NCBI GenBank assembly: GCA_016931515.1
Contig: JAFGEQ010000006.1
Location: forward strand, 24,649 to 88,648
DNA: 64,000 bases
Origin: a candidate division CSSED10-310 bacterium
GTDB lineage: Bacteria > CSSED10-310
Direction of reading: 5' to 3'
Every line of letters starts with the position of its first letter. Positions within the stretch are counted from its first letter, which is position 1. Both the position numbers and the translations under genes were made by a program. The notes below the pieces were generated by a model. It saw only the letters and a list, made by a program, of their open reading frames with translations. It was not told the origin of the DNA and ran no database searches. This document shows, piece after piece, positions 3,065 to 36,761 of this stretch.

Positions 3065-5344
3065 ATGAACCCGACGCATCGTTCCAGCACAGTCGATCAG
3101 CCAGCGGGAACACCTGTATCCAAACACAAATCCATCAGCCGGAGACGACGTAGAAATCTGATCCTGGGTGCTTGTGCACTGGTTATCATGCTCCCCCTCA
3201 TTTTTGCTCAATATTCGCTGGTGGAGGAAACAGCTCCAATAGTACTCGCAATTCTGAACGTCAATATCATCATCTTATTGTTTTTGATCTTCATGATTCT
3301 GCGAAATCTTATCAAGCTTTATGTCGAGCATAGTCAAAAACAAGCAGGATCCCGATTTAGAAACAAACTTGTTCTGGCATTTACAACGCTTACTTTTGTT
3401 CCTTCGCTTCTTCTGGTTTTTGCGGGATCCAATCTGATCACGTCCTCGATTAAGAGTTGGTTCGACCCCCAGGTTCAGCATTTTCTGGATGACGTGATTG
3501 ACGTCGCACGTGTCTCTCTGGATATGTACAAATCGATTTGTATCGAAACCAGTCACGATATCATTTCATCACTTCGGGTTGATTCATCCGGTGTTTATCT
3601 TAAAGAAAGTAAACTCGAAAGCTCTTCCATCGCCGAGACGATACTGGAACGATTCCCGGTCGATATAGCGCTAATTGTTGATCGAGACGCTCAAGAAATA
3701 AGTCGAGCCTCTTCTCCTGATATTCCTTCAGAGGCTCATTTAAATGTCTCCGGGCAGTTTATCAATAGAGTGTTAAATGGTGAGTCATCGAGCATGGTGT
3801 CATCGTTGGGATCAGGAGATATCATGTATTATGGCTTTGCACTTTATGAGGAAAAATCGATCACTGTGGAAGCAGCGGTCATCATCGGCATGCGAATCAG
3901 AGGTGACCTCTCCGAAAGAATTTCCAATATCAGGAGTAACTACGAGAAGTATCTTCAGCAAAAACAATCCATAAGACCTTCCCAGGGGTTGTATTTATCT
4001 ATTTTCATTATGATATCTTTGACTGTGCTTTTCGCCGCATTATGGATTTCTTTTTATTTTGCCCGTCAGATTTCATTCCCGATATCCCATCTATCACATG
4101 CTACATTGGAAGTAGCAAAAGGTAATTATGATTACCATCTTGATATACCGGCCCTTGATGAACTTGGAGATCTTGTTCGGTCCTTTAACTCAATGACCGA
4201 TGAACTCCGAAACAACCGGAATGTGATCGAGAAAACAACGTTCGCCCTCCACCAGAGAAACCGGGAAATCGAAACCCGGCGAAACGAACTTGAAGTGATT
4301 CTCAGCACTATAAAATCCGGCGTTATCGCTCTGGACGTCGACGGGTATATCCGCGTAATCAACTCAGCAGCCTGTGGATTTCTTAATTTGTCATCAAGAG
4401 AGATTATTCACAAGACATATTCAGCCGCGCTCCATCAGAGTTATCTGAAACCTTTCGTAGATATTCTGGAACGAATGTATGTCGATCGATATAAGGTTTT
4501 TCAAAACGAGATCCAGCTTGAAACGGGATCCAGGCTGTCGACTTTCTCGATCAATGTTACACCATTGTACGGTGGCAAAGAGGATTTCAATGGGGTTGTC
4601 GTCGTGATGAACGACCTGACTCAGCTTCTGAGAATTCAGCGAATTGTAGCGTGGCGGGAGGTAGCGAAACGTCTGGCGCATGAAATCAAGAATCCGTTGA
4701 CACCCATTCAATTGAACACACAGAGAATGCAAAAAAAGTTTCGAGAACAAGCCGCGGATTTCCCAACGGTTTTCGAAACATCTACTGAGAGTATAATTGA
4801 GGAGGTCTCCGGATTGCGCAGTATGTTGAACGAATTTTCACAGTTGGCCCAGATGCCGGAGGCAATTTTAACACCGGGTGATATCCATGAAACAATCTCC
4901 CAAGTAGTCGCTTTATATGCAGGCAGACAGGAAATCGAAATGGAGATGGTTTTTGCTGACGATGTGCCCCAGATTATGTTTGACAAAGCTCAAATCAAGC
5001 GAGTTTTCATAAACCTGATTGACAATGCGATCCATGCCATGAACGGTTTGGGAAAGGTCGTAATTAAAACTTCATACGACAGAATCATCGAGAAGGTCAG
5101 GATTGAAGTTATAGATACGGGCGCCGGGGTTCCCAGCCAGGAAAAAAACAAATTGTTCATGCCATATTTCTCAACTAAGCGGGACGGTTCCGGACTGGGG
5201 TTAACAATATGCAGTCGAATTATCACAGATCATGACGGCAGTATTCGCGTAACGGACAACGAACCGAAAGGAGCCCGTTTTATTATTGAGCTGCCTGTGT
5301 TATCGTCTTGTGGATCACTGTCACCTGGATCGGGAGTTGCCTGA
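3065..5344 (+). CDS. ntrY: sensor histidine kinase, NtrY-like (TM-HAMP-PAS-HisKA-HATPase)
   Basis: N-terminal TM helices, HAMP-like segment, PAS-like segment, H-box HEIKNPLTPIQL, HATPase motifs (DNAIHAM, DTGAGV, GSGLGL); ATG at 3065 preferred over TTG at 3062. Confidence 0.8.
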   Translation: MNPTHRSSTVDQPAGTPVSKHKSISRRRRRNLILGACALVIMLPLIFAQYSLVEETAPIVLAILNVNIIILLFLIFMILRNLIKLYVEHSQKQAGSRFRNKLVLAFTTLTFVPSLLLVFAGSNLITSSIKSWFDPQVQHFLDDVIDVARVSLDMYKSICIETSHDIISSLRVDSSGVYLKESKLESSSIAETILERFPVDIALIVDRDAQEISRASSPDIPSEAHLNVSGQFINRVLNGESSSMVSSLGSGDIMYYGFALYEEKSITVEAAVIIGMRIRGDLSERISNIRSNYEKYLQQKQSIRPSQGLYLSIFIMISLTVLFAALWISFYFARQISFPISHLSHATLEVAKGNYDYHLDIPALDELGDLVRSFNSMTDELRNNRNVIEKTTFALHQRNREIETRRNELEVILSTIKSGVIALDVDGYIRVINSAACGFLNLSSREIIHKTYSAALHQSYLKPFVDILERMYVDRYKVFQNEIQLETGSRLSTFSINVTPLYGGKEDFNGVVVVMNDLTQLLRIQRIVAWREVAKRLAHEIKNPLTPIQLNTQRMQKKFREQAADFPTVFETSTESIIEEVSGLRSMLNEFSQLAQMPEAILTPGDIHETISQVVALYAGRQEIEMEMVFADDVPQIMFDKAQIKRVFINLIDNAIHAMNGLGKVVIKTSYDRIIEKVRIEVIDTGAGVPSQEKNKLFMPYFSTKRDGSGLGLTICSRIITDHDGSIRVTDNEPKGARFIIELPVLSSCGSLSPGSGVA

Positions 5345-5346
5345 TT

Positions 5347-6768
5347 ATGCCCGGGGAAAAAATTCTAATAATCGATGATGAAGCTCGAGTTGTAGAAGCG
5401 ATCCGTGCTGTTCTGGAAGATGATGGATATGTTGTAATGTCTGCATCTTCCGGAGAATCAGCATTGGAAAACTTGGATCGGGATTTGCCGGACCTTGTAT
5501 TGCTTGATATCTGGCTGAAGGGAATCGATGGATTGGAGACCTTGGCGAGGATCCGCGAAACAGCTCCGGATCTGGGTGTAATTATGATTTCAGGGCACGG
5601 AACGATCGAGAGTGCCATCAAGGCGACTCGTCTGGGAGCTCTTAATTTTATAGAAAAGCCTTTATCTCTAGATAAATTGCTACTGGAAGTCCGACAAGCA
5701 ATCAAGCAGACAGCACTTGAACGGGAAAACCGGGATCTCAGAAAGCAGGTTAGCCAGCGTCACCGGATCATCGGACAGGGACGCAGCATGCAATCGATCT
5801 TAAAAAGGATTGAGGTTGCGGCGCCCAGCAATGCCCGGGTACTCATTTCCGGGGAGAGTGGTACCGGCAAAGAACTGGTAGCCCGTGAGATACACAGATC
5901 ATCAAACCGATCCACAAGAAGCTTTATTGAAGTGAATTGTGCTGCCATTCCTGAAGACCTGATAGAATCCGAGTTGTTCGGGCATGAAAAAGGCGCTTTT
6001 ACACATGCCATCAACAGAAAACGAGGAAAATTTGAACTGGCGCATGGGGGGACTCTATTTCTTGATGAAGTGGGTGACATGAGCTTAAAAACACAGGCGA
6101 AAGTACTTAGAGTTCTGGAAGAAGGGCGTATCGAGCGAGTTGGGGGCCACCAGTGTATTCCGGTGGATGTAAGGGTGATAGCTGCCAGTAACAAAAATCT
6201 ACAGCATGAAATCAGGGAGAACAGGTTTCGGGAGGACTTGTTTTACCGGTTGAATGTCATTCCTATCGATCTTCCGCCTTTAAGGGAAAGATCGGATGAT
6301 ATCCCCGATTTGATCCGGTATTTTCTAGATTTTTTCTGTTCAGAGTATGGAAAACCTTTGAAAACAATCAGTACGGATGCGATGAAAAACCTGGAATCCT
6401 ATTCCTGGCCGGGTAACATCCGGGAATTAAGAAATGAAGTTGAGAGACTGGTGATAATGACTGGATCAGTAGAAATCGGCACGGATGATCTTCGGCCTGA
6501 GCTCAGCGGGATGTCCGGCCACTCATTATCAGGACTACCCTCGTCCGGTTTGAATTTGAGGGATGCAAGAGACCAATTTGAGAGACAATACATCCTCCAA
6601 AATCTTGTGAAAACCGGTTGGAATGTGACTCAATGCGCTGATATTCTGGGAATAGAACGATCGAATCTGCACCGGAAAATGAAGCAATTGGGAATCCCGA
6701 GTTCCGGCGATTCCAGAACAAACCAGATTGGTGGGAGAGCGAGACATGTCAAACGTGGCAGCGAATAG
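5347..6768 (+). CDS. ntrX: sigma54-dependent response regulator, NtrX/NtrC family
   Basis: Receiver domain (ILIIDDE, D in LLDIWL), AAA+ sigma54-interaction domain (GESGTGKE, GAFTHA-like, ESELFGHEKGAF), C-terminal Fis-type HTH; ATG 5347 overlaps the kinase stop (ATGA... arrangement). Confidence 0.85.
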   Translation: MPGEKILIIDDEARVVEAIRAVLEDDGYVVMSASSGESALENLDRDLPDLVLLDIWLKGIDGLETLARIRETAPDLGVIMISGHGTIESAIKATRLGALNFIEKPLSLDKLLLEVRQAIKQTALERENRDLRKQVSQRHRIIGQGRSMQSILKRIEVAAPSNARVLISGESGTGKELVAREIHRSSNRSTRSFIEVNCAAIPEDLIESELFGHEKGAFTHAINRKRGKFELAHGGTLFLDEVGDMSLKTQAKVLRVLEEGRIERVGGHQCIPVDVRVIAASNKNLQHEIRENRFREDLFYRLNVIPIDLPPLRERSDDIPDLIRYFLDFFCSEYGKPLKTISTDAMKNLESYSWPGNIRELRNEVERLVIMTGSVEIGTDDLRPELSGMSGHSLSGLPSSGLNLRDARDQFERQYILQNLVKTGWNVTQCADILGIERSNLHRKMKQLGIPSSGDSRTNQIGGRARHVKRGSE

Positions 6769-8258: not shown

Positions 8259-9545
8259 ATGCAGGATATTATTTTAAAGAATGGCAGAATTATCGATCCG
8301 ACACAGGATCTGGATGATCAAACCGATCTTCTGATTCGAGATGGGCGGATTGAGCATATCGGAATATTGAATGATGGGATTCCTGAGGGTGCGACTGTTA
8401 TTGATATTGATGGAAAGTGGTGCGTACCCGGATTGGTGGACATGCATGTCCACCTAAGGGAGCCCGGCAGGGAAGATAAGGAAACTATCCAGACAGGCAC
8501 GATGGCGGCTGTTGCCGGAGGATTTACTGCGGTTGCCTGCATGCCCAATACAAACCCTGTTAACGATTCCGCGGCTGTAACACGTTTTATCATGGAGAAA
8601 GCCCGGAGTGCACCGGCTGTGGTTTATCCGATTGCAGCAGTAACACGGGGGCTTGAAGGAATTCAATTGACAGAGATGGTTGAACTGCACGAAGCCGGGG
8701 CAGTAGCTTTTTCCGATGACGGTCATTGTATCATGAATGCCGACAATCTCAGGCGTGCCCTGGACTACGTTAAAATTTTCGGCGGTCTGATCATCGATCA
8801 CTGTGAAGACCCGGTGATATCAAAAGGAGGCGTCATGAGGGAAGGATTCATCTGTACGACCCTCGGATTCCCGCCGATTCCATCGCTTGCGGAAGAACTG
8901 ATGGTAGCCAGAGATATCCGGATTGCAGAATACACTGGCAGTGCGATTCACATCGCCCACGTTTCAAGCCGCGAGAGTGTACGACTGATCCGTGACGCAA
9001 AAAACCGGGGAATAAGAGTATCGGCCGAAGTGACTCCTCATCATTTATTTCTGACTGATGAAGCGGTCAAGACGTTTGATACGAACACCAAGATGAATCC
9101 ACCGCTTGGAACTGAAGAGGATCGAGAAATTCTAGAGGAGGCAGTAATTTCTGGCGTTATCGACTGTATCGCGACCGATCATGCACCACATACAGACACA
9201 GAAAAACAAGTAGAATACAGCTTGGCTCCAAACGGCATTATCGGATTGGAAACAGCCTTGCCGCTGGTTATGACGCGTCTAGTTCACACTCGAAAAATGA
9301 ACCCGTCGCAGATGATTCGTTCGATGAGCACCAACCCGTCGAGATTACTGGGAATCGAAGGTGGGAGTTTACTGAAGGGTGCGCCCGCCCACATCACGGT
9401 AATTGATCCGGATCGATTGTGGATGGTCGATCCGATGCGGTTCTATTCAAAATCCCAGAATACACCATTCGGCGGACTGAGTCTCAGGGGTTCATGTAAT
9501 CTGACGCTGGTTCACGGAAAAATCGCATTTCAATCCTCGAATTAG
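8259..9545 (+). CDS. pyrC: dihydroorotase
   Basis: Amidohydrolase metal-binding DMHVHLREPG and downstream HxH/D motifs; ATG 8259 chosen (track ORF begins at GTG 8250). Confidence 0.85.
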   Translation: MQDIILKNGRIIDPTQDLDDQTDLLIRDGRIEHIGILNDGIPEGATVIDIDGKWCVPGLVDMHVHLREPGREDKETIQTGTMAAVAGGFTAVACMPNTNPVNDSAAVTRFIMEKARSAPAVVYPIAAVTRGLEGIQLTEMVELHEAGAVAFSDDGHCIMNADNLRRALDYVKIFGGLIIDHCEDPVISKGGVMREGFICTTLGFPPIPSLAEELMVARDIRIAEYTGSAIHIAHVSSRESVRLIRDAKNRGIRVSAEVTPHHLFLTDEAVKTFDTNTKMNPPLGTEEDREILEEAVISGVIDCIATDHAPHTDTEKQVEYSLAPNGIIGLETALPLVMTRLVHTRKMNPSQMIRSMSTNPSRLLGIEGGSLLKGAPAHITVIDPDRLWMVDPMRFYSKSQNTPFGGLSLRGSCNLTLVHGKIAFQSSN

Positions 9546-9706
9546 ACGAGAGGTTGGATATTGGTGGAGAAGGATCTCGGTAAGTAATCGAACCCTCAAA
9601 CTGTTACCAAATACCTCATATTGGCGCATCCCAGGATAATGATGCCACGCCGGATGGAGCTTTGCATCTGGTATATTTTTTGCTTTAAGATTGGAAGACA
9701 GTTTGA

Positions 9707-10495
9707 ATGTGGACACAAGGCACGATCAGACGAGATCAAGGATTGGAGGGCGCCTTGAATTTAAAATACTCCCATGGTTTTTCTCTGGTTGAGTTACTGG
9801 CTGTCATCGGAATTTTTCTGGTCTTATCCACAATTTCGATTATTGCGTGGGACTCGTTTGGACCCCTGATGATACTGCAAGGTGCGGCTGAAGGACTCGG
9901 GGATACTCTTGAACTGTGTATGCACAAAGCTCTGGCTCAAAAAAATGAGTTTTTTGTAATGATCAACTATAGAGAGCGCTTGTATCGAACAAATGACAAT
10001 ATCACTCTCCAGTTCCCCGCCAATTCATATGTGGCAGTCAATGATGATGGCTGGTTGCCGACCAACACGAATAAGACGCGCAGATACAATCATCACTCAC
10101 GGTTTGATGGCGATAAACCGGAGTATCGGGAGGAGTATGTTCCTGATGCTGGTGATTACGCTAACAAATGGCGAGATAATAACATGATTGAGTCTCGAGA
10201 AATCTTTAAGGGACCGTTACGGATAGGACGTGGAATATTTTTTCAGCCGCCGACGGATGTCCGTGATGCCCCTGTTAGAATCGTTTTAAGCTATCGAAAA
10301 CCATTTATGTACTGGCATGGTCAGAATGTTCCCGTCAACCGTCCTGTTTACGAAGCGGAACGCCGCGAGGATGCCGCCTATTTATATTTATCGGACCATC
10401 GGTACCGACCTGGAGATGACACTAAAGATAATAAAGCACATCTTCGGGTCATTCGCATCATAGAACAAAAGGTCGATGTATATCGACCTATCTAA
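9707..10495 (+). CDS. type IV prepilin-like protein (N-terminal cleavage/methylation motif)
   Basis: Leader then G|FSLVELLAVIGIFLVL with Glu at +5 and hydrophobic helix = class III (prepilin peptidase) signal. Confidence 0.7.
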   Translation: MWTQGTIRRDQGLEGALNLKYSHGFSLVELLAVIGIFLVLSTISIIAWDSFGPLMILQGAAEGLGDTLELCMHKALAQKNEFFVMINYRERLYRTNDNITLQFPANSYVAVNDDGWLPTNTNKTRRYNHHSRFDGDKPEYREEYVPDAGDYANKWRDNNMIESREIFKGPLRIGRGIFFQPPTDVRDAPVRIVLSYRKPFMYWHGQNVPVNRPVYEAERREDAAYLYLSDHRYRPGDDTKDNKAHLRVIRIIEQKVDVYRPI

Positions 10496-10523
10496 AAATC
10501 AGAGTGCTGAAAGGGGATCGGTC

Positions 10524-13328
10524 ATGAGTCTTTGTATAAACAAAGGAAATCGTCACGCCGGCTTTTCGCTTGTCGAAATGCTGATATCTATGGTGGTTTT
10601 CAGTGTTGTCATGGGAATTATCTATTCCTTCCTCCTCCAGACAAAAAAGGACCTTTCCGAAGCGGAAGTCGAACTCGATTTAACGGATAATGCGCAATCC
10701 GCTATCAATGCGTTGCGCAAAGATCTATACCAGATAGGGATTGGCCGCGATACTGAGAAAACACAACCCCAGATATTACGCGCAGGTATGTTCGATCTGA
10801 TTTTCGTCGCTGATCTGGATCGTGAAGTCCGCTCCACCGATAAACGATACGGGAGTCCGGATCCCAATCTTCCGATGTCCTTCTCGCCTGGATCTCCGTT
10901 CTTACCAATCTATTTTTTATTCGATCCCGGTATACCAGAACTTTTTCGCTTTACAGGATGGGATCCGAGTTTGAGTTACGGTTATAACAACCTGGGTGCA
11001 GAAGTCGTCCGTTACTCGTTAGATTGCAACGGTGATAATGTAATCAGCAGTTTGGATCTGGAAGATAATATCGAGATGGACGGAGCCAGGGAACAGACGA
11101 TCAACCCGAATGATTTCTGGCTTTTCAAGGAATGGTGGGGATGCTATAACTCCTCCGGAGTCTATATCAACCAGCACTCCGGACGACATCCGGTCGCCTT
11201 CAATATAAAAGGTATGTTTTATAAACCCACTGGAGGAACACCATCGGGGACAAACAGTCGTTTCATTTACCCCGACGGGAGTTATCCGAAAATACTGTTT
11301 ACTTATTGGGGCCATTTTTGGAATTCCATTACTGATCATGATGATCCGGGAGATCCTGATTGGCCTGGTGAACCACTGGATTTATGGGGTGATTTCGGGT
11401 TGCAAAATCCGATCCAGATCAATCAACCGATAACCCCCGGCGTTGACGGCTCCAGAGACGGCGTTTTAGATATGAACGAAATCAACGAGATGATGAGCAA
11501 TCCCAATAAATCGGAAATCAATCTCCTATACCTTGCCGGTATAACTGGCCGATGTGCTGAAAGTCTTACGGGGGATGAGAATGGGAACGGTATCCCGGGT
11601 GAGTATAGGATTGACCAGTTTATTCGGCGTATCGGTGTCACTCTGGTTGTTGAGGCAGATTCTCCAAACCCCAAATCACCTAATCTTGAGCGGTCCAATA
11701 TGACTAATCCCAGTGCTCCTGGATATTACTATTACAAAGACTACGAGGTATCGATACAGATTAACCCGAGAAATCTGATCTATTCCGGATCTCCACTTGT
11801 TGATATGGGTCAGATGACACCTACGCCGATTCCGCCGACATCAACACCGCTACCCCCTACCAACACTCCTGATCCTTCAATCCCAACCAACACACCAACC
11901 AACACACACACACCGGACCCGATGGCAACACCAACAGCGACTCCTGATCAACTTGGTTTCGATAAGGATGATGGTGAAGTTGTGATCGGCGGTCTTAATT
12001 ATATTTATGGTTTATCCATCGATCGGATGGCTCCATCTGTTTCTGAAATTTGCGCATTGACCAATAGTTCGACCTATCTTGCCTTGTTCGGATATCCAGT
12101 GACCCAGGTTGAACCTGCTAATTTCTGTGATTTGCCGGGATCTTTTGATCCTTGGAATGACGTTGTCATGTCGAATAATGCGAACGGAGGTCTGTCGAAT
12201 CTGTTTTATTACAAGCATAATACTGAATCCAGCGTCAACGGATTCTCAACCCTTCATTCTACATCAGTCGGCTACGATCCATCTGACCGGATCACCTGTT
12301 TCGCAACCGGCAATATTGGACCATTTGGTTATGTTCCGGATGAATATGACGAAGTTGTCGTGGCCTATCATCGATACAATGGAGCTCCTACCGAAAAAAC
12401 CCTGATCGAAGTCATGGCACTAAACTATAACTGTGGTGATTTGATTTCAGTCAGCAATCCACCTCCCCTGTCACTCGACACCAATCGAATCATTAAAGAT
12501 ATGCTGATTGCGGATTTTGACGGTGATGGTATCGGGGAGCTTGTCACAATGACCAGTCATTTCGGCACTGAGGGTGTCTCCCAAATTCGCTATTATCCGG
12601 ATATCTTTAACCAGGGTTGGTCAACATACCATGAGTTCCCGATTTTGAATTTTGGCACGAATGTCCAATGCGCCAAGCTTGTTGCAGATACTGTCTACAC
12701 CGGAAATGCTAAACCTATAGAACCTGACCTTATCATCGTAGGAGAAAATGGACGATTTGCAGTGATTACGAATCGCCGTAGCGGTACCGTATCACCCAAT
12801 CCATTTAACACGACCATCCGATACAGTACATCAGATGCATTTGATCGTTTCTCAACAGTAACCGGTGCAGTCGTATATGACTCAAATAATTTAAGCAGTG
12901 TATATGAGCCGGTCATGGCCATCAGTGGAAATAGTGATGTATCCGATAACGTACAACTTGTACATTACCAGATGACTGATATCGCAACATCTACGATCCC
13001 GTTGGCGAATTGTTCCGGATCAATCTGGCCGACACCCGGTGAGATAATCTCAACCAAAGGAATGAGCTATGTTCCGGTATTCGGGACGGTCAATTCTGAC
13101 ACTTATCTGGTCATCCCGGTCAATGTGGGTGGTATTGATTATGCAACCTTTATAAAGAACCCTGTATTAAGCAGCGGTCCTGTATTCGATCCATCTGTCT
13201 CCTGTCAGTTGGAGCTCTACTCTGTCATTGGAGGAATCAACTGCATTACATCAACGCGGAATGAGTTATCTGGAGATCTTGGAACGATGCCGACACCCAC
13301 AGTTTTACCAGCGACACCAACGCCTTAA
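10524..13328 (+). CDS. giant type IV pilin-like protein (~935 aa) with FG-GAP-like and Ca-binding-like motifs and Pro/Thr linkers
   Basis: ATG 10524 preceded by AAAGGGGA RBS; N-terminus NKGNRHAG|FSLVEMLISMVVFSVVMGIIYSF prepilin motif; DFDGDGIGE FG-GAP-like loop; PT-rich linker near 11818-11948; C-terminal PTPTVLPATPTP. Confidence 0.65.
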   Translation: MSLCINKGNRHAGFSLVEMLISMVVFSVVMGIIYSFLLQTKKDLSEAEVELDLTDNAQSAINALRKDLYQIGIGRDTEKTQPQILRAGMFDLIFVADLDREVRSTDKRYGSPDPNLPMSFSPGSPFLPIYFLFDPGIPELFRFTGWDPSLSYGYNNLGAEVVRYSLDCNGDNVISSLDLEDNIEMDGAREQTINPNDFWLFKEWWGCYNSSGVYINQHSGRHPVAFNIKGMFYKPTGGTPSGTNSRFIYPDGSYPKILFTYWGHFWNSITDHDDPGDPDWPGEPLDLWGDFGLQNPIQINQPITPGVDGSRDGVLDMNEINEMMSNPNKSEINLLYLAGITGRCAESLTGDENGNGIPGEYRIDQFIRRIGVTLVVEADSPNPKSPNLERSNMTNPSAPGYYYYKDYEVSIQINPRNLIYSGSPLVDMGQMTPTPIPPTSTPLPPTNTPDPSIPTNTPTNTHTPDPMATPTATPDQLGFDKDDGEVVIGGLNYIYGLSIDRMAPSVSEICALTNSSTYLALFGYPVTQVEPANFCDLPGSFDPWNDVVMSNNANGGLSNLFYYKHNTESSVNGFSTLHSTSVGYDPSDRITCFATGNIGPFGYVPDEYDEVVVAYHRYNGAPTEKTLIEVMALNYNCGDLISVSNPPPLSLDTNRIIKDMLIADFDGDGIGELVTMTSHFGTEGVSQIRYYPDIFNQGWSTYHEFPILNFGTNVQCAKLVADTVYTGNAKPIEPDLIIVGENGRFAVITNRRSGTVSPNPFNTTIRYSTSDAFDRFSTVTGAVVYDSNNLSSVYEPVMAISGNSDVSDNVQLVHYQMTDIATSTIPLANCSGSIWPTPGEIISTKGMSYVPVFGTVNSDTYLVIPVNVGGIDYATFIKNPVLSSGPVFDPSVSCQLELYSVIGGINCITSTRNELSGDLGTMPTPTVLPATPTP

Positions 13329-13354
13329 ACAGCCACGCGGCAGATAAAAACAAT

Positions 13355-13384
13355 AAAGCCACATTCTTTAAAGAACGTGGCTTT
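13355..13384. terminator. bidirectional intrinsic terminator (near-perfect 15+15 palindrome)
   Basis: aaagccacattcttt|aaagaacgtggcttt flanked by A-run upstream and T-run downstream, between convergent ends of the pilin gene (+) and the minus-strand operon. Confidence 0.5.
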
Positions 13385-13397
13385 ATTGTTGAATCGC

Positions 13398-13916: not shown

Positions 13917-16900
13917 CTATGGATGTGGATCAAAATATAGCACCGCACCTTTATTTCCGTCGCCAGTATCAACGCGTTCACCACCGGTGTGGCTCAAGAA
14001 AACGACTTCTTCATCCCCCATTTCGCCTATATCGATCCCACCCAGTGCATCGACGCCCAAGCCCGTATCATATGTGTTCTTTAATTCTCCATCTCTCGTA
14101 ATTTCCAATACAAAACCATTACCGCGACAGGCGACATACAAATGGTCATACTTCACCGAGTAAGCAATACCGATGGGGTTGTTCAAATACGCATAAGTAA
14201 AACAAACCACCGATTGAAGGCCACTGCCGTCGACAACCGACAACGTTTCAGATGTGCCGACCGGTCCAGATGGTTTCATCCTGACACGGGTTATATTTCC
14301 AGCTTCCGGATCGGTAATGAACAGGTAACCTGAGCCAGGATCAGCGTCTTCAGATAGTGGAACAAACTCGATTCCCATTGGCGTATCAACACCAGTGAAT
14401 GCCACATAGGGACCATCGTCGAGATCGATTCCATAAACCAATCCTCGATCAGAATGCGATGCGAAAATCAAGCGACTCATATAGGAGGGATCATCGGGCG
14501 CCAGACCCGCATCAACAATGCCGCTGATTCCAACCAGCCCGACCCCTGCTCCCCAGTACCCCGCATAGGTTCCGAATCCACGGGCTCCTCCGTTATCGGC
14601 ACCCAGCGTGCTGCTCTGCTGAGCAAAATCTTCCGCATGATTGTCCGTGTCGATACCATTCGGTACCCGTGCGACAGATTCGTTCGCGATGCTGTCTGCA
14701 TCACCGTTCTCCCCCGGCTCCGGCGCTCCGTTTCCATCACCGTCTCCTGCAGGATCGTCCCCGATTTCAACATCGTCAATGATAGAACTTGCTGTGTCGC
14801 GCAGAATGAAATAGCAGTCGTTATTATTAGAGCCAACTGGATTCCCAACCACCAGATAGGAACCGGGAAGGAAGTTCGTCACGCTGGCAGAGGTTGGATA
14901 AACGATTTCCGTACCACTGCCGCTGCCTATCACGTGCGTTTCAGGTGTTGTGTCGATCATTTCCAATGTCCATCCAGTCAGATCCAGCGTTTGACCCGAT
15001 GTGTTGTACAGCTCAATCCACTCATCAGATGTCGTGATAGCTCCCGAACCCGGTGTATCACTGAATGGTATTCCATCGCCACCCTCAGAATCATTCCAAT
15101 CCTGCTGGGGATCGACAACCACTTCATTGATTACTATCTTCCCGAGTCCTGTAGTGAAATTTATCTCAAAATCAGGACCGGTACTGCCGTCACAGTCTCC
15201 ATCAAGCCCATGGCCACTGGTGTCCGTGATAGCGGACGTTAATGTGACCGTATAGGTTTCCTCAGAAGCTAGCCGATCTCCGGGTTGAAATAGCACAACC
15301 GTGTTTCCGGAAGTAAACATGAAGTTACCGGTAACAGCGCCATCGGGGCCCACCATCAAAAACGACGTTGTGTTAACGGTACTGGGGAGAATCGCCTCTG
15401 TAAAATGGATCGTTACTCCCGTATTGACCGATACGTTCTGATCACCATCGGTTGGATCGCTTTCAAAAACGCATGGAGGAGTTCTATCGTCACCTCCAGT
15501 TCGGAATTCGGCAATAAATGGATCCAGCGGAAGCCCCTGTGTCTGATCCAGCGAATTGCCCGCAAGGTCCGTTACATCTGTCGTTACAGTCAATCGGTAA
15601 TCGGTATCTTCATCCAAATCAGTCTCAGGACTTAAAGAAATACTTGTATTCCCGGGATTCAGAGTAATTACTGAAAGAACATGGTCATCGGGGAATGCGA
15701 CCGGAACCAGATAGACTGAAGCGCTTGTTACTGTAGATGAATTAACCTGTTTAGAAAAATTCATGTAAATCTGAGTGTTAATACTAATTCCCGTGTCCCC
15801 CGATTCCGGATAGGATGATGTCACGTAGAGCCGGTCTCCTCCAGCAGCAACTTGTGTGCAATAACGCCCTCCCGGAAGGCCATCCCCGTCTCCGTCCAAA
15901 GTAACGCCTTGCAAATCCGTCAGTGTATCTTCAACACACACAGTATAATAACCTTCCGAAAACCCGGTTGACGCACTGAAGTTCATCTGAACACCGGAGG
16001 GCCAGGTAATGGTTCCGGATACTTGCCGATTCTGGCTGTCGACGACACTGAGGTATACGCCTGTCAGACTGGAAGGATCGATCTCCTTCGTGAAGATGAT
16101 CGTAAGCAGATCACCGGAAATACTTGCTGACGCTACTTGTGGAGGCTGCGTACTTGAGGCTCCGGTACTGAAATGACTCACGAAAGCATCCGGTAAACCA
16201 CCGGGAATCTGATCCAAAGGATTTCCCGTCAGATCCTGAACTCTGTAATTGACTTCAACCGTATAGGTAATATCAGCCTGCAGTTGTTCCCTCGGAACAA
16301 ACGTTGCCATCATCAAACCCGTATCCACATGGATGTCACCACTGATTTTATTCCCATCCGGTTCCATCACCAGGAAAGCGGTCGTGGATACAGTGGATGC
16401 TTTTACGGGCTCGGAAAAGCCGATCTCTATCAGAGTGTCTACCGATACGAAGGTTGATCCATCGGCCGGGCGCACCCAGACGACACGGGGACTGCCATAT
16501 CCAACAGTAAAAATGCTATTGAAATCATCCGGTCCCGGACTGCGCAGATCGCCATCGAGTGAAACGCCATCCTGATCCGTTATATCTTTATCCAATACTA
16601 TTTCGTAACGGGTCTTCTCAGTCAAATCACTCGAATAAACAAATTCAACTCTTTTATAATCGTTCGAAAATGAAAATGAGCCAGTAGGTGCTTTGGGATA
16701 GGGTGATTGGGGGCTATAGTCAACCTGCACTTCGAACGTTGAGGATGTGACCGTCGATGGATCGACCGGTGACGAAAATTCGACAGCAATCACCGGATGG
16801 TGCGACACACCTTCCGCACCGTCTTCCGGGGTCACGGATGTAACAATAAACCCGTAGTCAGTCATTCCAAAGATACCGGATCCAGCCGGCCCGGGAACGG

Positions 16901-17399
16901 GTTCACCCGCCTTGCCGGAGTGGCCGTTGGGTTCTTTCGTCGGATTCGGATCCGTCACTGCAATGCTTCCAAGACCCTGGTCGTCATTGGCAATCCAGAC
17001 AAACGGTCCGAGAAATGCAACATCATAAGGATTTGAAACAGCCGGTAATCCAAATTGATCCGTTAATCCGCCATGACTATAAATATCTATGTTTCCCGAA
17101 TGAGGATTTACCTGAGTAATTGTGTTCGCAAATTCACCGATTGTTCCTCGATTGGCAACCAGGAGATTGCCGACGCTGAGAACGCTGCCCTGACCGCTCC
17201 CATCGGAATCTTTCCCTGCTATAAATTCGATCCCCCATGGGAAATTCAAATTGGACGCGACAATCTCAGGTGCGACAAGAATAGTGTTTTTATCCTGATC
17301 AAAGGAATTCTCAATTTTATCTTCGCAACCAACCAAGATCATTCCCAGAGCGAGAACAAGGCATACATTTACGGTCATCCATTTCATAATCAACCTCAT
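13917..17399 (-). CDS. giant surface lipoprotein with repeated Ig-like (SbsA/Big_5-type) domains, a lamin-tail domain and beta-propeller-like termini
   Basis: Lipobox LVGC after signal peptide; repeated P..G...V.....I...FS..V....V....F.L units; LTD-like block GKIVINEVVVD...DEWIELYN...GWTLEM (approx 14700-15150); NHL/propeller-like C-terminus. Confidence 0.65.
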   Translation of the reverse strand: MRLIMKWMTVNVCLVLALGMILVGCEDKIENSFDQDKNTILVAPEIVASNLNFPWGIEFIAGKDSDGSGQGSVLSVGNLLVANRGTIGEFANTITQVNPHSGNIDIYSHGGLTDQFGLPAVSNPYDVAFLGPFVWIANDDQGLGSIAVTDPNPTKEPNGHSGKAGEPVPGPAGSGIFGMTDYGFIVTSVTPEDGAEGVSHHPVIAVEFSSPVDPSTVTSSTFEVQVDYSPQSPYPKAPTGSFSFSNDYKRVEFVYSSDLTEKTRYEIVLDKDITDQDGVSLDGDLRSPGPDDFNSIFTVGYGSPRVVWVRPADGSTFVSVDTLIEIGFSEPVKASTVSTTAFLVMEPDGNKISGDIHVDTGLMMATFVPREQLQADITYTVEVNYRVQDLTGNPLDQIPGGLPDAFVSHFSTGASSTQPPQVASASISGDLLTIIFTKEIDPSSLTGVYLSVVDSQNRQVSGTITWPSGVQMNFSASTGFSEGYYTVCVEDTLTDLQGVTLDGDGDGLPGGRYCTQVAAGGDRLYVTSSYPESGDTGISINTQIYMNFSKQVNSSTVTSASVYLVPVAFPDDHVLSVITLNPGNTSISLSPETDLDEDTDYRLTVTTDVTDLAGNSLDQTQGLPLDPFIAEFRTGGDDRTPPCVFESDPTDGDQNVSVNTGVTIHFTEAILPSTVNTTSFLMVGPDGAVTGNFMFTSGNTVVLFQPGDRLASEETYTVTLTSAITDTSGHGLDGDCDGSTGPDFEINFTTGLGKIVINEVVVDPQQDWNDSEGGDGIPFSDTPGSGAITTSDEWIELYNTSGQTLDLTGWTLEMIDTTPETHVIGSGSGTEIVYPTSASVTNFLPGSYLVVGNPVGSNNNDCYFILRDTASSIIDDVEIGDDPAGDGDGNGAPEPGENGDADSIANESVARVPNGIDTDNHAEDFAQQSSTLGADNGGARGFGTYAGYWGAGVGLVGISGIVDAGLAPDDPSYMSRLIFASHSDRGLVYGIDLDDGPYVAFTGVDTPMGIEFVPLSEDADPGSGYLFITDPEAGNITRVRMKPSGPVGTSETLSVVDGSGLQSVVCFTYAYLNNPIGIAYSVKYDHLYVACRGNGFVLEITRDGELKNTYDTGLGVDALGGIDIGEMGDEEVVFLSHTGGERVDTGDGNKGAVLYFDPHP

Positions 17400-18331
17400 T
17401 CCACAGCGGCCATTGCTGCTGTTTCCCTGGAGCGGGCAAGGGCTTCAGAAAAAAAGCCTCCTGTCAGACCATCTATTGCGGCTGTCAATTCCTGAATCTG
17501 TAATTCTCTTTTTACCTTGACAGTAATTGATACTTCCGGTTGGAGGATCATCTCTACCTGCAGTGCGCGACGGTCATAATACAATTCTGTCACATCCTCG
17601 ATCACACTCTGCCTAAATTTCACTTGTTTCTCGGTTTCCGAGCTCACTCTCAAAATATCATTGCTGAAGCAGTAATCCTGGAGTTTCCATCTGAACCTCA
17701 ACTGATAATCGAAATCATCATCGGTGCCCCGCTTCCAGGTTTCCTTGTCCGGACCGACCGTCGTGGTTCCTCCTGATATGCTGATCGTATTCGTACGCGT
17801 ATAATCTCTGTCATCGTCCGTATCGTGTCCGAGAGTGAATTGAACGGAATCGGGCCAAAGTCCTTTCTCCTTCGCCTTCTGCCGCCACTGGGCAAACCGT
17901 TCGCCATCAATTTCAGCAAAGCGGATTGCAGCTATCTGTACATCGCGGATGGATGGTTCCAGATCGAAAGAAGCGAGAATTTCATCAACCGATGGCAGGG
18001 GTGTAGCAGTTGGTTGGGATTCTTCCGGCACATCTTGCTTTGATATAACATCCACAACAGGATCGGGATCGGATAGGGAGATAAGATCCTTCAATCTTTC
18101 CAGTGTCTTATCGCCTATTTTAGGTACATTACCGAGTTCATCCAAGGACTGAAATGGTCCATTGGTGTTGCGATAATCGATGATCAATTGCGCCAGTCCC
18201 GGACCTATGCCCGGTAATGTCTGCAATTCCATGTTCGTTGCGGTGTTGATATTCACCGGTGTGCTATCCAGTGCCTGACAAGCCGCTGCAACAACCAATA
18301 AATATGCAATCGAACTCAGTAGCTTTTTCAT
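17396..18331 (-). CDS. ComEA-like helix-hairpin-helix protein fused to a C-terminal domain of unknown function
   Basis: Signal peptide, then VNINTATNMELQTLPGIGPGLAQLIIDYRNTNGPFQSLDELGNVPKIGDKTLERL (ComEA HhH signature), then ~200 aa unknown; 4-bp overlap with downstream gene. Confidence 0.6.
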   Translation of the reverse strand: MKKLLSSIAYLLVVAAACQALDSTPVNINTATNMELQTLPGIGPGLAQLIIDYRNTNGPFQSLDELGNVPKIGDKTLERLKDLISLSDPDPVVDVISKQDVPEESQPTATPLPSVDEILASFDLEPSIRDVQIAAIRFAEIDGERFAQWRQKAKEKGLWPDSVQFTLGHDTDDDRDYTRTNTISISGGTTTVGPDKETWKRGTDDDFDYQLRFRWKLQDYCFSNDILRVSSETEKQVKFRQSVIEDVTELYYDRRALQVEMILQPEVSITVKVKRELQIQELTAAIDGLTGGFFSEALARSRETAAMAAVE

Positions 18332-18354
18332 TTTTCTTCTCTCCTTAACACGCT

Positions 18355-20175
18355 TCAGTATCGCAGTCCCTTCTGGAACAGAGTGTCAAATTGAAAACCG
18401 GTTAACGCATTGATCTGCGCCTCTATCTCTTGTATATTCAGAACCATATCAATCGTACGACCCGGATTGCCGGACGTGCTTAACTCCATGTACAACCGCC
18501 CCAGTTTGTTATACTTATCTCGAATATCCACCAACATTTTGTTCCGACGTCGAACCTCGCTTCTCAATCGTTTCGACATCGATACATCACTCCGGTCAAA
18601 ACAATAAAAGCGAGGACTCCACGAGAGACTCAATCTCACATCAAAGGGATCATTCTGCCAAAGATCATATCTTTCGTTCACCGGTCCAGTGTAGGCTTTT
18701 CCACCGGATATCCAGACTTCGGGATTGCGGGTGTAATTTGTTCTCCGAATTGCCATTGAGGTGAGACAAAACTCGACTTTGGGAAACCAAATCCTGTTGA
18801 GTGACCCGTTATACCAGTTCCGATCCCGAGCAATATCTATTTGTGCATGACGCATCGAAGCCCTGATTACGTCATTCAGGGTCGGATATTCATCAGGCAG
18901 AAAAGTCGCGATCATCGGGTCGAAAGACATGCCCGTTTGATCAGAGAGCATAAAAATGCCGGTCGCTGTTGCAATCCATATCTCTTCCGGACGCGTTGGA
19001 TTCAGCGCCAGTTCACGCACGTTATACTCAGATAAACCCGGATTATGGAATTGACCTTCTCCCGTTAGTGAGTTCCAAAAATACAATCCCCTGTTCGTTG
19101 CAAGAATTGTCGTGTTCAATGAAACGAGAAGATCCTGGATTCTTACTCCACTGATCTCTTCCTCCGATACCTCTGAGAATTCATGATCCTTTGTGATCCG
19201 ATACAAACCGGTTGGACCCCCAAGATATATCTCATTCTGTGACGAGAGATTGATCATCTGTGCCTGAATGGGTGGCTGCAGTACTCTTATATTCTCCAAA
19301 ACGGCGTGGTTTAAACTGGCAATAATGACACTGCTTTCCGTAATGGCGACAATGACACGTCCGTTTATTCGATCCGTCTCCAGATCGAGCATCCGTCCCT
19401 GATCCAAAACACCCTCAACAACATCGAATGTTAATCCATGATCGTTCGATATAAGCAATTTTCCATTCTGAAGGATCAGAACATCTCCTTCAGGTGCAAT
19501 CACACAGACCCGAGTGATCCCTGTGTTCGCAGGTCCTGCGTTAGCCGGCAACTCCTCCCAACGATGCCCCGAATCCATCGATCGATATAATCCTCGATCC
19601 GTCACCAGATACGCATACCTCGGATCCGTGGAGTCCCAGCGGACCTGGCGGATCACAACCTGTATTTCTTCAATAAAATCCGGATCCTCATCACCAATAT
19701 CCACTTCCTCATCAGTGTCGGTGTCAGGTTCCTCTAAAAGACCCAGATCAATCAGTCTTTCCCTGAGTTCCTCATCCGACAGATCATCAATCTCCTCCTC
19801 CTCGTCGAGTACTCCCCTGTAATACAAATCGTCGACATCATAATCGTCCCGATCGAAATTCGTGGAGATATCTGATTCCTGGTCATCCTGATCAGGTTCT
19901 TCAATGTAATCTTCCTCATCATCAACAAAAGAGCCGGTACGAAACACTGCCCGCCAGGATCGTCCATTGTTTTCAGACAAGTAAACAGTTCTTTCTGTTG
20001 CACATAATATATGCCGACCCGAGTCATCCAGATCAATAGAAATCAAATTCAAATCAAGCATTCCGCCCGATTGATCGATCCATTTTCTCTGGAGAAACTC
20101 CGGTTCAAGTCCAGAAAAAGCAGATGCTTTCAGGAATAAAACAAACAAACCGATGAGGAATTGAGTCCGGATCAC
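18355..20175 (-). CDS. secreted BNR/Asp-box repeat protein with a long acidic insertion
   Basis: Signal peptide MIRTQFLIGLFVLFLKASA (GTG start); Asp-box-like SENNGRSW, SMDSGHRW, SNDHGLTF; ~90-aa D/E-rich segment. Confidence 0.5.
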   Translation of the reverse strand: MIRTQFLIGLFVLFLKASAFSGLEPEFLQRKWIDQSGGMLDLNLISIDLDDSGRHILCATERTVYLSENNGRSWRAVFRTGSFVDDEEDYIEEPDQDDQESDISTNFDRDDYDVDDLYYRGVLDEEEEIDDLSDEELRERLIDLGLLEEPDTDTDEEVDIGDEDPDFIEEIQVVIRQVRWDSTDPRYAYLVTDRGLYRSMDSGHRWEELPANAGPANTGITRVCVIAPEGDVLILQNGKLLISNDHGLTFDVVEGVLDQGRMLDLETDRINGRVIVAITESSVIIASLNHAVLENIRVLQPPIQAQMINLSSQNEIYLGGPTGLYRITKDHEFSEVSEEEISGVRIQDLLVSLNTTILATNRGLYFWNSLTGEGQFHNPGLSEYNVRELALNPTRPEEIWIATATGIFMLSDQTGMSFDPMIATFLPDEYPTLNDVIRASMRHAQIDIARDRNWYNGSLNRIWFPKVEFCLTSMAIRRTNYTRNPEVWISGGKAYTGPVNERYDLWQNDPFDVRLSLSWSPRFYCFDRSDVSMSKRLRSEVRRRNKMLVDIRDKYNKLGRLYMELSTSGNPGRTIDMVLNIQEIEAQINALTGFQFDTLFQKGLRY

Positions 20176-29327: not shown

Positions 29328-29342
29328 TGGCACATGGATTGC
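29328..29342 (+). promoter_or_regulatory. sigma54 (RpoN) -24/-12 promoter element upstream of comEA-ssb
   Basis: TGGCAC-ATGGA-TTGC: GG and GC separated by 10 nt exactly as in the TGGCAC-N5-TTGC consensus; 38 nt upstream of TTG start 29380, followed by AAAGGAGG RBS at 29364-29371. Confidence 0.55.
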
Positions 29343-29379
29343 CTAAGAAATTGTCGATGTCAGAAAGGAGGCGAATAAT

Positions 29380-29739
29380 TTGGCGACTCGTTGGACACTA
29401 TCTCTCGTAGCTTTTGTAATCATGATTTCATTACCATCGATCCTTTGGAACGCACCATCACCTATCGATCTTAATCAAGCGACTCAAACACAGTTAGAAC
29501 TAATTCCTGGGATCGGACCCGCGACTGCGTCTCGGATTATTCTGGAACGAAACCGGCGAGGAGGATTCCGGACTGTGAATGATTTGCTGAAGATTCGGGG
29601 AATCGGTCGAAAGACTCTGAGAAAAATTGAGAAATATCTGATCATTGAGAGGAATAATCTTCCGGACGTCAAGCCGGAGGTTGTAGATCAGGAAGTAACA
29701 ACGGGAAAGTATCAACCATTTAAAAGGAGATCGTTATGA
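29380..29739 (+). CDS. comEA: ComEA-family helix-hairpin-helix DNA-binding protein
   Basis: Signal/TM anchor then LNQATQTQLELIPGIGPATASRIILERNRRGGFRTVNDLLKIRGIGRKTLRKI; TTG start. Confidence 0.75.
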   Translation: MATRWTLSLVAFVIMISLPSILWNAPSPIDLNQATQTQLELIPGIGPATASRIILERNRRGGFRTVNDLLKIRGIGRKTLRKIEKYLIIERNNLPDVKPEVVDQEVTTGKYQPFKRRSL

Positions 29740-30086
29740 TAAATTCAGTCACAATTATAGGGCGACTCGGTCAGGATCCGGAACTGCGAACGACGGAGAA
29801 TGGAACGAGCATGGTCAATTTCAGTCTGGCGCACAATGAGATACGCCTGGTTAACGGCAACCGGGAAACAACACCACACTGGTTTAAATGCATCGCATTC
29901 GGATCACTTGCTCAACTATGCGTCGAATACCTTCACAAGGGATCCCGGATCGGTGTTTCAGGAAGCTTGAAGCAGCGAAATTGGGAAGCTGATGATGGTA
30001 ACAAGCGAAGTTTGGTAGAAATCCTTGTGAAGGACATCGAATTCCTTTCTTCGAATCGCAGCAACGGCACTGATGATGAAAGCTGA
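29736..30086 (+). CDS. ssb: single-stranded DNA-binding protein
   Basis: OB-fold SSB N-terminus MINSVTIIGRLGQDPELRTTENGTSMVNFSLA; short (116 aa) with acidic C-terminal tail DDES; ATGA overlap with comEA. Confidence 0.8.
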   Translation: MINSVTIIGRLGQDPELRTTENGTSMVNFSLAHNEIRLVNGNRETTPHWFKCIAFGSLAQLCVEYLHKGSRIGVSGSLKQRNWEADDGNKRSLVEILVKDIEFLSSNRSNGTDDES

Positions 30087-36100: not shown

Positions 36101-36266
36101 TATGTCTCAACAAGCTCCGGTTGACGAGTTTGCCTATAACATTAATAATACCTCTCTCCGGGTGCCGCAACATTTTCGTCAGAAGATCCGGGTCGAAAGG
36201 CTGAATCAGATGAGCAGCTGTTTGCAATAAATTTGTTTCGAATGATGTCAGCGTCCGTGTATCCAT
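33183..36266 (-). CDS. sigma54-dependent transcriptional activator with ~600-aa N-terminal sensory region
   Basis: AAA+ sigma54-interaction domain (GETGTGKELIARAIH, ESELFGHCKGAFTGA), C-terminal Fis-type HTH; long N-terminal region with no named motif. Confidence 0.8.
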   Translation of the reverse strand: MDTRTLTSFETNLLQTAAHLIQPFDPDLLTKMLRHPERGIINVIGKLVNRSLLRHIPGDGYIFHSHKFMNQLIEDTPLERRQAIYRKLFNIISDKTIAIPFHERSRSKAWAALKLGAPEAVECAVEALDCAFLQVDDVSAEGIFCLCNETWPESVPKPIQLKMAEFDYLRGNYLIALEKIQRSIEMFPSDSTSSLAYQSRILLLRIKARIDASFPLLCNLWQLSNQDIEHSDLRPLVVMAVVRCQELGQESLASVIINKLCSDNQLDDATHAENLWLLGRQALLGGDINQSRDLFQYALRTIERQTNRTLGAHIMMDIARMHGMNGNTVREARCLRLVDNLLKRGYRDALHSMLALHRLDMLLDDGKINQAANYIDRLFRETSGQTGHFRFAIAALGGAVVAGKLNQPAVSVQYLRELFRTPASIPAELMTRIDRIMDDPVWRTRRYVKTEHSVLKSLYEIAYRENPWLPSGIDTHRIPRPTIEQAEFLRQGQLVWDHLMDSMITEEPDLSRETGKMTKLVTLAERIGDECRWSMAVKMLLKSRPESNNTGVVPQNEIHTFTDAIFDAESFESHNHYIKEKLHSLTGVSSGCYLIEAEDRWNWRDAWGEAPGLQEQRFILGRIGRGRDSDGSGSIEIGSWIAFRFPKVVSERGFLLLKKADSIPGNMNISDLKMSVEHLIKPIAFSRQVFKQRMMKDNHALLPPSRDYADRILGQSQVIRRLKQKIRELADSPTTVHIVGETGTGKELIARAIHFCGQRRNRPFIAFNCSTSPETLVESELFGHCKGAFTGADRSRKGVFLAADRGTLFLDEVADLPLIVQAKLLRAIQERSIRPVGSDVDIPVDIRIISATHKDLRLEIEQNRFRQDLYYRLVVISLEAPALRDRLEDIGILAESFLNEFSKLIGRRNLSLSDRAIEWLRIRYWSGNVRELQNTMEIAVNYSEDGQVIDRDDLQVWIQSSSSSFNKTLAEVSAKVQVDYIRRVLHHCNANIMRSAEILGVSRQTLFQKMKSMGIMIPSGNEFLFDD

Positions 36267-36276
36267 CGTGTGAGAT

Positions 36277-36738
36277 CTATTTGTTTTTGGATTTCAGAAG
36301 TGCACGTAACTCATCATAAAATTGTTGAAAATCCTTAAACTGCCGGTATACGGACGCAAATCTGACATAAGCGATCTCATCGAGATCCTTGATTCGTTTG
36401 ATCACATACTCACCTATCTGCTGAGTCGAAATTTCTCTGTCTTCCGAAGCATGAAGCATCTGCTCAACTTCATCTACAAGCCCTTCTATGTCGAGCTGTT
36501 TTACCGGTCGTTTCTCGAATGCCTTGTTAAGTCCACGGAATAATTTTCCTCGATCAAACCGCTCACGCCGTCCATCCTTCTTGACGACCATATAGTGCAA
36601 CTCTTCGATTTCCTCATACGAAGTAAATCGTCTGTGGCAATTCAAACACTCGCGCCGTCGTCGGACACTTTCACCATCTCTGGCAGGTCTCGAGTCCACA
36701 ACCTTGTCTTCCAGATGACCACAAAAAGGACATTTCAT
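36277..36738 (-). CDS. nrdR: transcriptional repressor NrdR
   Basis: N-terminal zinc ribbon MKCPFCG...CLNC and ATP-cone; start set at the MKCPFC ATG (track ORF extends to GTG 36765). Confidence 0.9.
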   Translation of the reverse strand: MKCPFCGHLEDKVVDSRPARDGESVRRRRECLNCHRRFTSYEEIEELHYMVVKKDGRRERFDRGKLFRGLNKAFEKRPVKQLDIEGLVDEVEQMLHASEDREISTQQIGEYVIKRIKDLDEIAYVRFASVYRQFKDFQQFYDELRALLKSKNK

Positions 36739-36761
36739 TGGTAACCAACCTCCTGAATCGT

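Follow-up and report, generated by a model that had tools for sequence, protein, structure and literature searches.

A Giant Modular Prepilin with a Predicted Beta-Propeller in a Candidate Sigma-54-Dependent Minor-Pilin Locus of Candidate Phylum CSSED10-310

Introduction

Modular pilins, in which a pilin module is joined through a linker to an extra module that is not specific to type IV pili, are known from a survey of more than 1,200 proteins with 264 architectures (Raynaud et al., 2021; PMC8179133). In that survey a protein of 860 amino acids (aa) with 12 motif copies stands as the most extreme multi-domain case, the same dataset already includes pilins joined to FG-GAP (IPR012902-IPR013517), and modular pilins have been proposed to act as tip-exposed adhesins (PMC8179133). 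The large minor pilins CofB/TcpB of type IVb systems, ComZ of Thermus, and GspK occupy the tip of the filament and start its assembly (PMC8179133), and in M. xanthus the minor pilins and PilY1 form a tip/priming complex (PMC7541494). Here we describe a pair of prepilin genes, termed gene A and gene C, in a 64-kb stretch of DNA from a candidate division CSSED10-310 bacterium (GCA_016931515.1, contig JAFGEQ010000006.1, positions 24,649-88,648). This whole stretch is called the window, and coordinates refer to it unless another locus is named.

We favor, with moderate confidence, a reading in which A and C make up an operon of two genes under sigma-54 control. Their products would be minor subunits of a type IV filament, with the assembly machinery encoded elsewhere in the genome. 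The kind of system is already known, and the A-C pair is no new kind. New here are the apparent J-class carrier of about 400 residues in C, a long Pro/Thr linker, the predicted complete 7-bladed propeller, the apparent confinement to one phylum, the pairing with an H-like pilin and the conserved putative sigma-54 promoter. An earlier note made from the letters of the window (the original prediction) had drawn attention to the two genes; it overlooked the promoter, the GspH-like and GspJ-like class assignments and a four-gene, H-I-J-K-like form of the operon.

Two Genes with Class III Signals

The longest open reading frames (ORFs) of the pair span 9707-10495 and 10476-13328. Gene A (9755-10495, + strand, 246 aa), which encodes a prepilin resembling GspH/FimT minor pilins, probably starts at TTG 9755, to judge from the DNA and the leaders of its orthologs, with a GGAGG ribosome binding site at 9745-9749, five bases upstream. 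Its leader, MNLKYSHG, is followed by FSLVELLAVIGIFLVL, which begins with FSLVELL, and cleavage is predicted before the Phe encoded at 9779. For gene C (10524-13328, + strand, stop codon included, 934 aa), which encodes the modular prepilin, the likely start is ATG 10524; its leader is MSLCINKGNRHAG, and FSLVEMLISMVVF, with its initial FSLVEML, comes next. The class III signal of C (10524-10631, + strand) comprises a 13-residue leader ending in Gly at 10560-10562, then FSLVEMLISMVVFSVVMGIIYSF, the hydrophobic alpha1N segment with Glu at +5. The product of gene C matches NCBI protein P0001 with 100% identity from end to end; that protein is annotated as 'prepilin-type N-terminal cleavage/methylation domain-containing protein'.

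The claim that both ORFs are type IV prepilin-like is borne out by hidden Markov models (HMMs) scoring above their cutoffs for both proteins: Pfam N_methyl PF07963 gives 23.6 bits for A and 32.4 bits for C (cutoff 21.2), and TIGR02532 gives 20.9 and 24.6 bits, respectively (cutoff 16.3). Both sequences show a short basic leader with Gly at -1, then Phe at +1 and Glu at +5 and a hydrophobic helix of about 20 residues; Gly at -1, Phe at +1 and Glu at +5 are invariant in the aligned orthologs (21 for C, 6 for A), as are, more fully, G13, F14, S15, L16 and E18 of C in 21/21 sequences. A six-frame motif scan of the 64 kb identified A and C as the sole genuine class III signals, and the locus is native, since its GC content equals that of its surroundings. 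Membership of C in the Verru_Chthon cassette was considered and is ruled out by score: the model for cassette protein C (TIGR02599) reaches 29.3 bits where 256.5 are required, with residues 29-86 alone aligned.

Anatomy of the Giant Pilin

An AlphaFold2 (AF2) model of C, built from the 21-sequence alignment with a mean predicted local distance difference test (pLDDT) value of 74, resolves four regions: a 53-residue N-terminal helix (residues 16-68), a beta-rich region reaching about residue 420, a disordered stretch at residues 421-477 (pLDDT <50) coinciding with the Pro/Thr linker, and an all-beta domain at residues 480-915 (pLDDT 80-90). A fold search with the predicted model recovered a J-type pilin fold in residues 14-420 (10563-11783, + strand), here treated as a putative GspJ/PilW-class pilin module. 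The model of this module is of medium confidence (pLDDT 66, predicted template modeling score 0.71), and only about 130-140 residues align in the match, so that the module has about 250 residues of insertions. Searches of the PDB by sequence found no relatives past the alpha1 helix for either A or C.

The most conserved motifs of the C family sit in the pilin module, namely FTYWGHF, WPGEPLDLWGDWG, an EF-hand-like loop and a DxNGNGIxGE loop. The EF-hand-like loop DCNGDNVISSLDLE (11022-11063, + strand, residues 167-180) follows the pattern D-x-N-x-D-x-x-I-x-x-x-D-x-E and includes the DCNGDN of residues 167-172 that the original prediction had singled out; across the 21 sequences D167, D178 and E180 are invariant, while at least 90% have N169 and D171. 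This pattern suggests that the loop binds calcium. A second conserved Asp/Asn-Gly loop, DENGNGIPGEYRID (11574-11615, + strand, residues 351-364), has invariant D351, N353 and E360, with G354, N355, G356 and I357 each present in at least 90% of the same sequences.

The Pro/Thr-rich linker (11784-11963, + strand, residues 421-480, of which about 55 are disordered) has 16 P and 14 T among its 60 residues and was found in all family members. Behind it lies a domain predicted with confidence to be a C-terminal 7-bladed beta-propeller (11964-13268, + strand, residues about 481-915). The FG-GAP-type loop DFDGDGIGE (12513-12539, + strand, residues 664-672) lies within it, as had been noticed earlier, but the FG-GAP domain expected on that basis is not matched above threshold: FG-GAP_3 aligns to residues 644-674, a single loop or blade, at 16 bits against a cutoff of 26.9. 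In the family FG-GAP_3 is matched by 10/21 members (best E 3e-6) and FG-GAP by 2/21, and the loop is degenerate in some, for instance DFAGKGTEQ. Many 7-blade structures match the domain equally well, integrin alpha chains being one example. The protein ends in a PT-rich tail (13269-13325, + strand, residues 916-934, pLDDT <50), which varies in length across the family; the linker and the tail had both been described in the original prediction and are present.

Class of Gene A

The six aligned A orthologs are 39-51% identical to A of the window and share an invariant G-F-S-x-x-E and a DDDGW motif. All six match GspH (TIGR01708; best E 8.7e-5) and the FimT/GspH-like model PRK10506 (best E 3e-6), and 4/6 match XpsH, in each case far below cutoff; GspH, PpdA and XpsH are consistently the best full-length models, likewise below threshold. 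The best available label for A is a putative minor pilin of the GspH/FimT/FimU class, or H-class.

Labels of this kind also fit a reading in which A (GspH-like) and C (GspJ-like) would be pseudopilins of an endopilus resembling that of a type II secretion system, and not parts of a surface pilus. They would help to expel large exoproteins, for example the products of the neighboring convergent operon. We consider this improbable.

Locus Conservation and a Four-Gene Form of the Operon

The A and C pair is kept in 12/12 distinct CSSED10-310 loci retrieved, with A conserved at 38-62% identity across them, and it sits in a conserved block. Upstream in this block are genes for a DUF4390 protein, an NtrY-like kinase and an NtrX-like sigma-54 activator, together with pyrR, pyrB and pyrC; downstream and convergent are genes for adenosine kinase, a 1160-aa Big_5/LTD protein, a ComEA-HhH protein, a BNR-like protein and a GlnD-like protein. 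The pyr genes upstream and a convergent operon of proteins with Sec signals downstream agree with the neighbors named in the original prediction. Because housekeeping genes belong to the conserved block, adjacency alone tells little about function.

Five of the 12 loci (L001, L002/L015, L013, L014 and L016) have a four-gene version, A-B-C-D. Gene B, located between A and C (L001 9526-9966; L002 9539-9973), encodes about 145 aa with an N-terminal transmembrane segment and no Glu at +5. Gene D, 3' of C (L001 12908-14929; L002 12850-14805), encodes 650-673 aa, with an N-terminal transmembrane segment followed by ASYLAESGIQYAL, and has an 'AESGIQYAL' motif; it occupies the GspK/PilX position. Neither B nor D matches Pfam or any known HMM. 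From its sequence, gene D is read as PilX/GspK-like, and A-B-C-D would then correspond to an H-I-J-K-like gene order.

In a neighbor-joining tree of C all members of the window's clade have the two-gene form, and the two-gene locus L007 is nested among four-gene loci, a position that implies at least one loss of B and D. The tree is compatible with either form at the root.

Putative Promoter and Terminator, and Candidate Regulators

A putative sigma-54 (-24/-12) promoter, TGGTATATTTTTTGCT, lies 5' of gene A (9669-9684, + strand) and agrees with the consensus, having GG at -24 and GC at -12 at canonical spacing. The pattern TGGTAY-N5-TTGCW has this one match in the 64 kb (0.08 expected by chance), and the same element is found at the orthologous position in 12/12 loci, where it is the sole invariant block in the aligned upstream regions. 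These features point to sigma-54 promoter function. In the window a histidine kinase and sigma-54 activator of the NtrY/NtrX type are encoded 3 kb upstream of A (activator at 5308-6768); an NtrX-like gene is found upstream in most loci and directly adjoins A in L006/L012, and NtrYX is not upstream in L005/L009/L010. At the other end, a terminator scan found a hairpin with a 19-bp stem (13349-13390, no strand assigned) between the convergent C and adenosine kinase genes, likely a bidirectional terminator that ends the operon. An Rfam scan of the window returned no RNA family.

Control of pilin genes by PilS/PilR and sigma-54 is established in Pseudomonas, Myxococcus and Geobacter, where the target is the major pilin. 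The locus described here resembles those systems in having a -24/-12 element before a pilin gene and differs from them in that the element precedes a minor-pilin pair.

A sigma-70-like element, TTGACTT-N15-17-TGGTATA, stands between the sigma-54 site and A in L001 (about 8730-8760), L002, L006, L007, L013, L014 and L016 and was not found in the window's clade; its sequence suggests dual promoters in the deeper-branching loci that have it. The deeper-branching loci also share a conserved small ORF, which separates A from pyrC or NtrX and encodes about 55-65 aa with a single transmembrane segment, ..LFxYTLxVLxLFFxVML.. (L001 about 8358-8520; L002 about 8360-8540; L006 8716-8910; L007 about 8690-8870). 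In the window only a degenerate remnant of the 3' end of this ORF is left, at about 9575-9615; between it and the sigma-54 site stands a conserved TGTTAC motif.

Two further features of the window concern sigma-54. A second sigma-54 activator of 1027 aa (33183-36266, - strand), encoded beside a PP2C phosphatase, has a 700-residue N-terminal region without a Pfam match and is a second candidate regulator of the sigma-54 promoters of the window. A perfect consensus sigma-54 site, TGGCACATGGATTGC, occurs at 29328-29342, 38 bp upstream of a gene for a 119-aa ComEA-like protein (29380-29739), which combines a transmembrane segment with HhH and scores 43.6 bits with TIGR00426 against a cutoff of 53.1. 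This gene overlaps a short ssb gene (29736-30086, 116 aa), and by its sequence the stretch 29328-30086 looks like a sigma-54-driven gene pair of the DNA-uptake type.

ComEA-type neighbors and a common sigma-54 regulon lie behind another explanation, in which A and C would be minor pilins of a DNA-uptake (competence) pilus whose propeller, together with those neighbors, captures extracellular DNA. We hold this to be quite improbable. The ComGE matches cover the alpha1 helix only, neither A nor C showed a DNA-binding feature, and no comEC, dprA or pil genes were seen in the 64 kb and the adjoining 7 kb. Sigma-54 regulons are broad, moreover, and the synteny with the ComEA-HhH gene belongs to the long conserved block.

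Pilus Machinery and the Proposed Role of the Pair

As the original prediction had stated, ORFs of at least 150 aa in the window include no domains of pil or gsp machinery, and none were found in the 7 kb further right. This absence is unremarkable. Minor-pilin operons often lie apart from the machinery genes, and those of well-studied bacteria are unlinked to pilBCD and pilMNOPQ, as is the case for fimU-pilVWXY1E in Pseudomonas. Most of the genes for biogenesis of type IV pili have been reported from metagenome-assembled genomes (MAGs) of CSSED10-310 (PMC8248873), and three of these MAGs have the A-C locus (L008, L013 and L014).

If A and C are minor subunits of a type IV filament, as we favor, a prepilin peptidase (PilD) would cleave both after Gly, and their alpha1N helices would hold them in the inner membrane. 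They would then join the initiation complex of the filament and hence come to lie at its distal tip, where the propeller, on its linker, would be exposed as a ligand-binding or adhesive module, a covalently attached functional analog of the PilY1/PilC tip adhesin. Stabilizing the modules would be the task of the conserved Asp/Asn loops, which probably bind calcium. In a further-reaching version, which we advance tentatively and think unlikely, the J-type pilin of CSSED10-310, fused to a propeller, took over the role of the tip adhesin and replaced PilY1, and in the window's clade H plus the fused J would suffice to prime and cap the filament. Given the ComEA-type neighbors, a minimal two-protein tip complex under sigma-54 control might also be tied to the capture of extracellular DNA.

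Several observations weigh against placing A and C in such a filament. No homologs of B or D were found in the window by tblastn, and its clade is without both, so a canonical I-J-K tip could not be built from the window locus alone. In the 64 kb and 7 kb of the same genome there is no prepilin peptidase, assembly ATPase, platform protein, secretin or major pilin. The J-class assignment of C stands at the level of the predicted fold only, because Pfam T2SSJ, Pfam PilW and NCBIfam GspJ match neither C nor the 21 family members at E up to 1. The subthreshold class hits of A cover mainly the N-terminal 65-85 residues, and no specific relatives of the C propeller stand out among its structural matches. 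Finally, a bulky C-terminal tag on PilW of M. xanthus jammed the machine, possibly at the secretin (PMC7541494), from which it follows that a propeller of about 47 kDa may be hard to export.

Some of these points lend themselves to an alternative in which A and C are not filament subunits at all. The class III signal would then do no more than anchor an envelope protein in the membrane or tag it for export, leaving the propeller to work in the periplasm or at the cell surface, much as in archaeal bindosome proteins or in the N_methyl proteins that have expanded in Planctomycetes and Verrucomicrobia. The lack of nearby machinery and the absence of I-like and K-like partners from the window's clade would fit this, as would the weak N-terminal match to Verru_Chthon cassette protein C (29.3 bits) and the hundreds of proteins of 800-2000 aa that have only the first ~100 residues in common with C, a pattern suggesting that a pilin N-terminus is a reusable carrier. 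The pilin module of C, however, is predicted to be a complete J-type globular fold and more than a helix, C is always paired with an H-type pilin, and some lineages show the H-I-J-K-like gene order. Glu at +5 is required for filament assembly and not for anchoring, and it is invariant in the C family. We give the anchor or export-tag explanation little credence.

Comparison with Described Systems

From the AF2 model and the fold searches, C fits the definition of a modular pilin given above. PilB and PilC of Streptococcus sanguinis join a pilin to a vWA and a lectin module, respectively; in C the carrier would instead be an enlarged J-class module of about 400 residues. The short loop that serves as linker in those proteins is replaced by a Pro/Thr linker of about 55 residues, the cargo is predicted to be a complete 7-bladed propeller, the host belongs to a diderm candidate phylum, and the length of C exceeds the 860 aa of the extreme case of Raynaud et al. 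Compared with the pseudopilins GspJ/XcpW/EpsJ and the Thermus pilin Tt1219 (PilW-equivalent class), C is five to six times larger and has neither a sequence-level HMM match nor an I or K partner in the window.

With the PilY1/PilC adhesins of type IVa pili the resemblance would lie in a large beta-propeller, an association with the minor-pilin tip complex, calcium-type loops and a presumed role in adhesion, and FG-GAP modules occur in the N-termini of PilY1 as well. PilY1, however, is not a pilin and has a propeller family of its own (PF05567/IPR008707), whereas the predicted propeller of C is covalently fused to a J-type pilin. A PilY1-like propeller was considered for C and rejected: there is no PF05567 match, and the top 50-60 structural matches do not include PilY1. 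Like CofB/TcpB, ComZ and GspK, C combines a pilin N-terminus with extra structural domains, but theirs are of other kinds (beta-repeat/beta-sandwich, beta-solenoid and alpha-domain), with no sequence or fold match to C.

A J-class tip pilin carrying a whole propeller would be a natural experiment on how bulky cargo passes through the machine of a type IV filament, and C bears on the question of whether a fused module can replace PilY1. For annotation, giant 'prepilin-type domain-containing' proteins become divisible into a J-type module, a linker and a propeller, and the pilin locus gains a recognizable sigma-54 promoter.

Family Distribution and Remote Relatives

In a set of 5.8 billion clustered proteins, the full-length relatives of C fall into only 21 clusters, with lengths of 911-973 aa and identities of 32-71%; all 21 have N_methyl. 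In the GTDB species set full-length C occurs in nine genomes, and those with a taxonomic name are all 'candidate division CSSED10-310', which indicates a family specific to one phylum, candidate phylum CSSED10-310.

An exhaustive profile search of 1.84 billion representatives returned 21 proteins at E<1e-30 and 87 at E<1e-10. Relatives of 813-1917 aa share the first ~480 residues with C, the hundreds of 800-2000-aa proteins mentioned above match only the first ~100, and the closer remote relatives have N_methyl and no other Pfam match. Giant J-like prepilins are therefore a sizeable, unannotated population. The suggestion that a pilin of this size would itself be an adhesin or tip subunit is upheld in part: the body of this modular pilin is plausibly a binding module displayed at the tip, but its size class is not unique. 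To the known modular pilins C adds a lineage-specific, well-defined family; its 21 clusters have members of about 930 aa, and its remote relatives elsewhere measure 800-2000 aa.

A remote relative from Candidatus Eisenbacteria (L018 3131-7306) has the layout of a small N_methyl pilin, a giant protein with N_methyl, SdrD_B and FG-GAP, and PilX_N, which supports the notion that giant pilins sit in minor-pilin operons. The giant prepilin combines SdrD_B with three FG-GAP repeats, and the same ORF runs into a PilX_N match at residue 999; it probably represents either two genes or a pilin-PilX fusion.

The Convergent Operon and Other Features of the Window

The operon that converges on the pilin pair (13917-20175, - strand) encodes secreted proteins with Sec signals and lies beside the pair in all loci. 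Its 1160-aa protein has four Big_5 domains, a lamin-tail domain and an N-terminus with a lipobox-like LVGC, and it also encodes a 606-aa acidic BNR/sortilin-like protein. The N-terminus of a 311-aa protein with a Sec signal passes the ComEA HhH model (62.2 vs. 53.1 bits). This protein was considered as a GspK and ruled out, as the subthreshold T2SSK/GspK matches fall only on the ComEA-type HhH region and the signal is of Sec type. A supposed minor-pilin cluster at 33183-38618, with a large ORF and three ORFs of about 155 aa before it, was likewise rejected; these genes actually encode the sigma-54 activator, NrdR, dCMP deaminase, RpiB and RibF.

Elsewhere in the window, a membrane H+-pyrophosphatase (48090-50396; PF03030, 890 bits) has an N-terminal PKD domain at residues 36-97, an unusual fusion. 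Two overlapping ORFs of 1064 and 1108 aa without a Pfam match occupy 54650-61167, 3' of relA/spoT and an inositol monophosphatase gene, and both are confirmed as called genes on a Logan contig.

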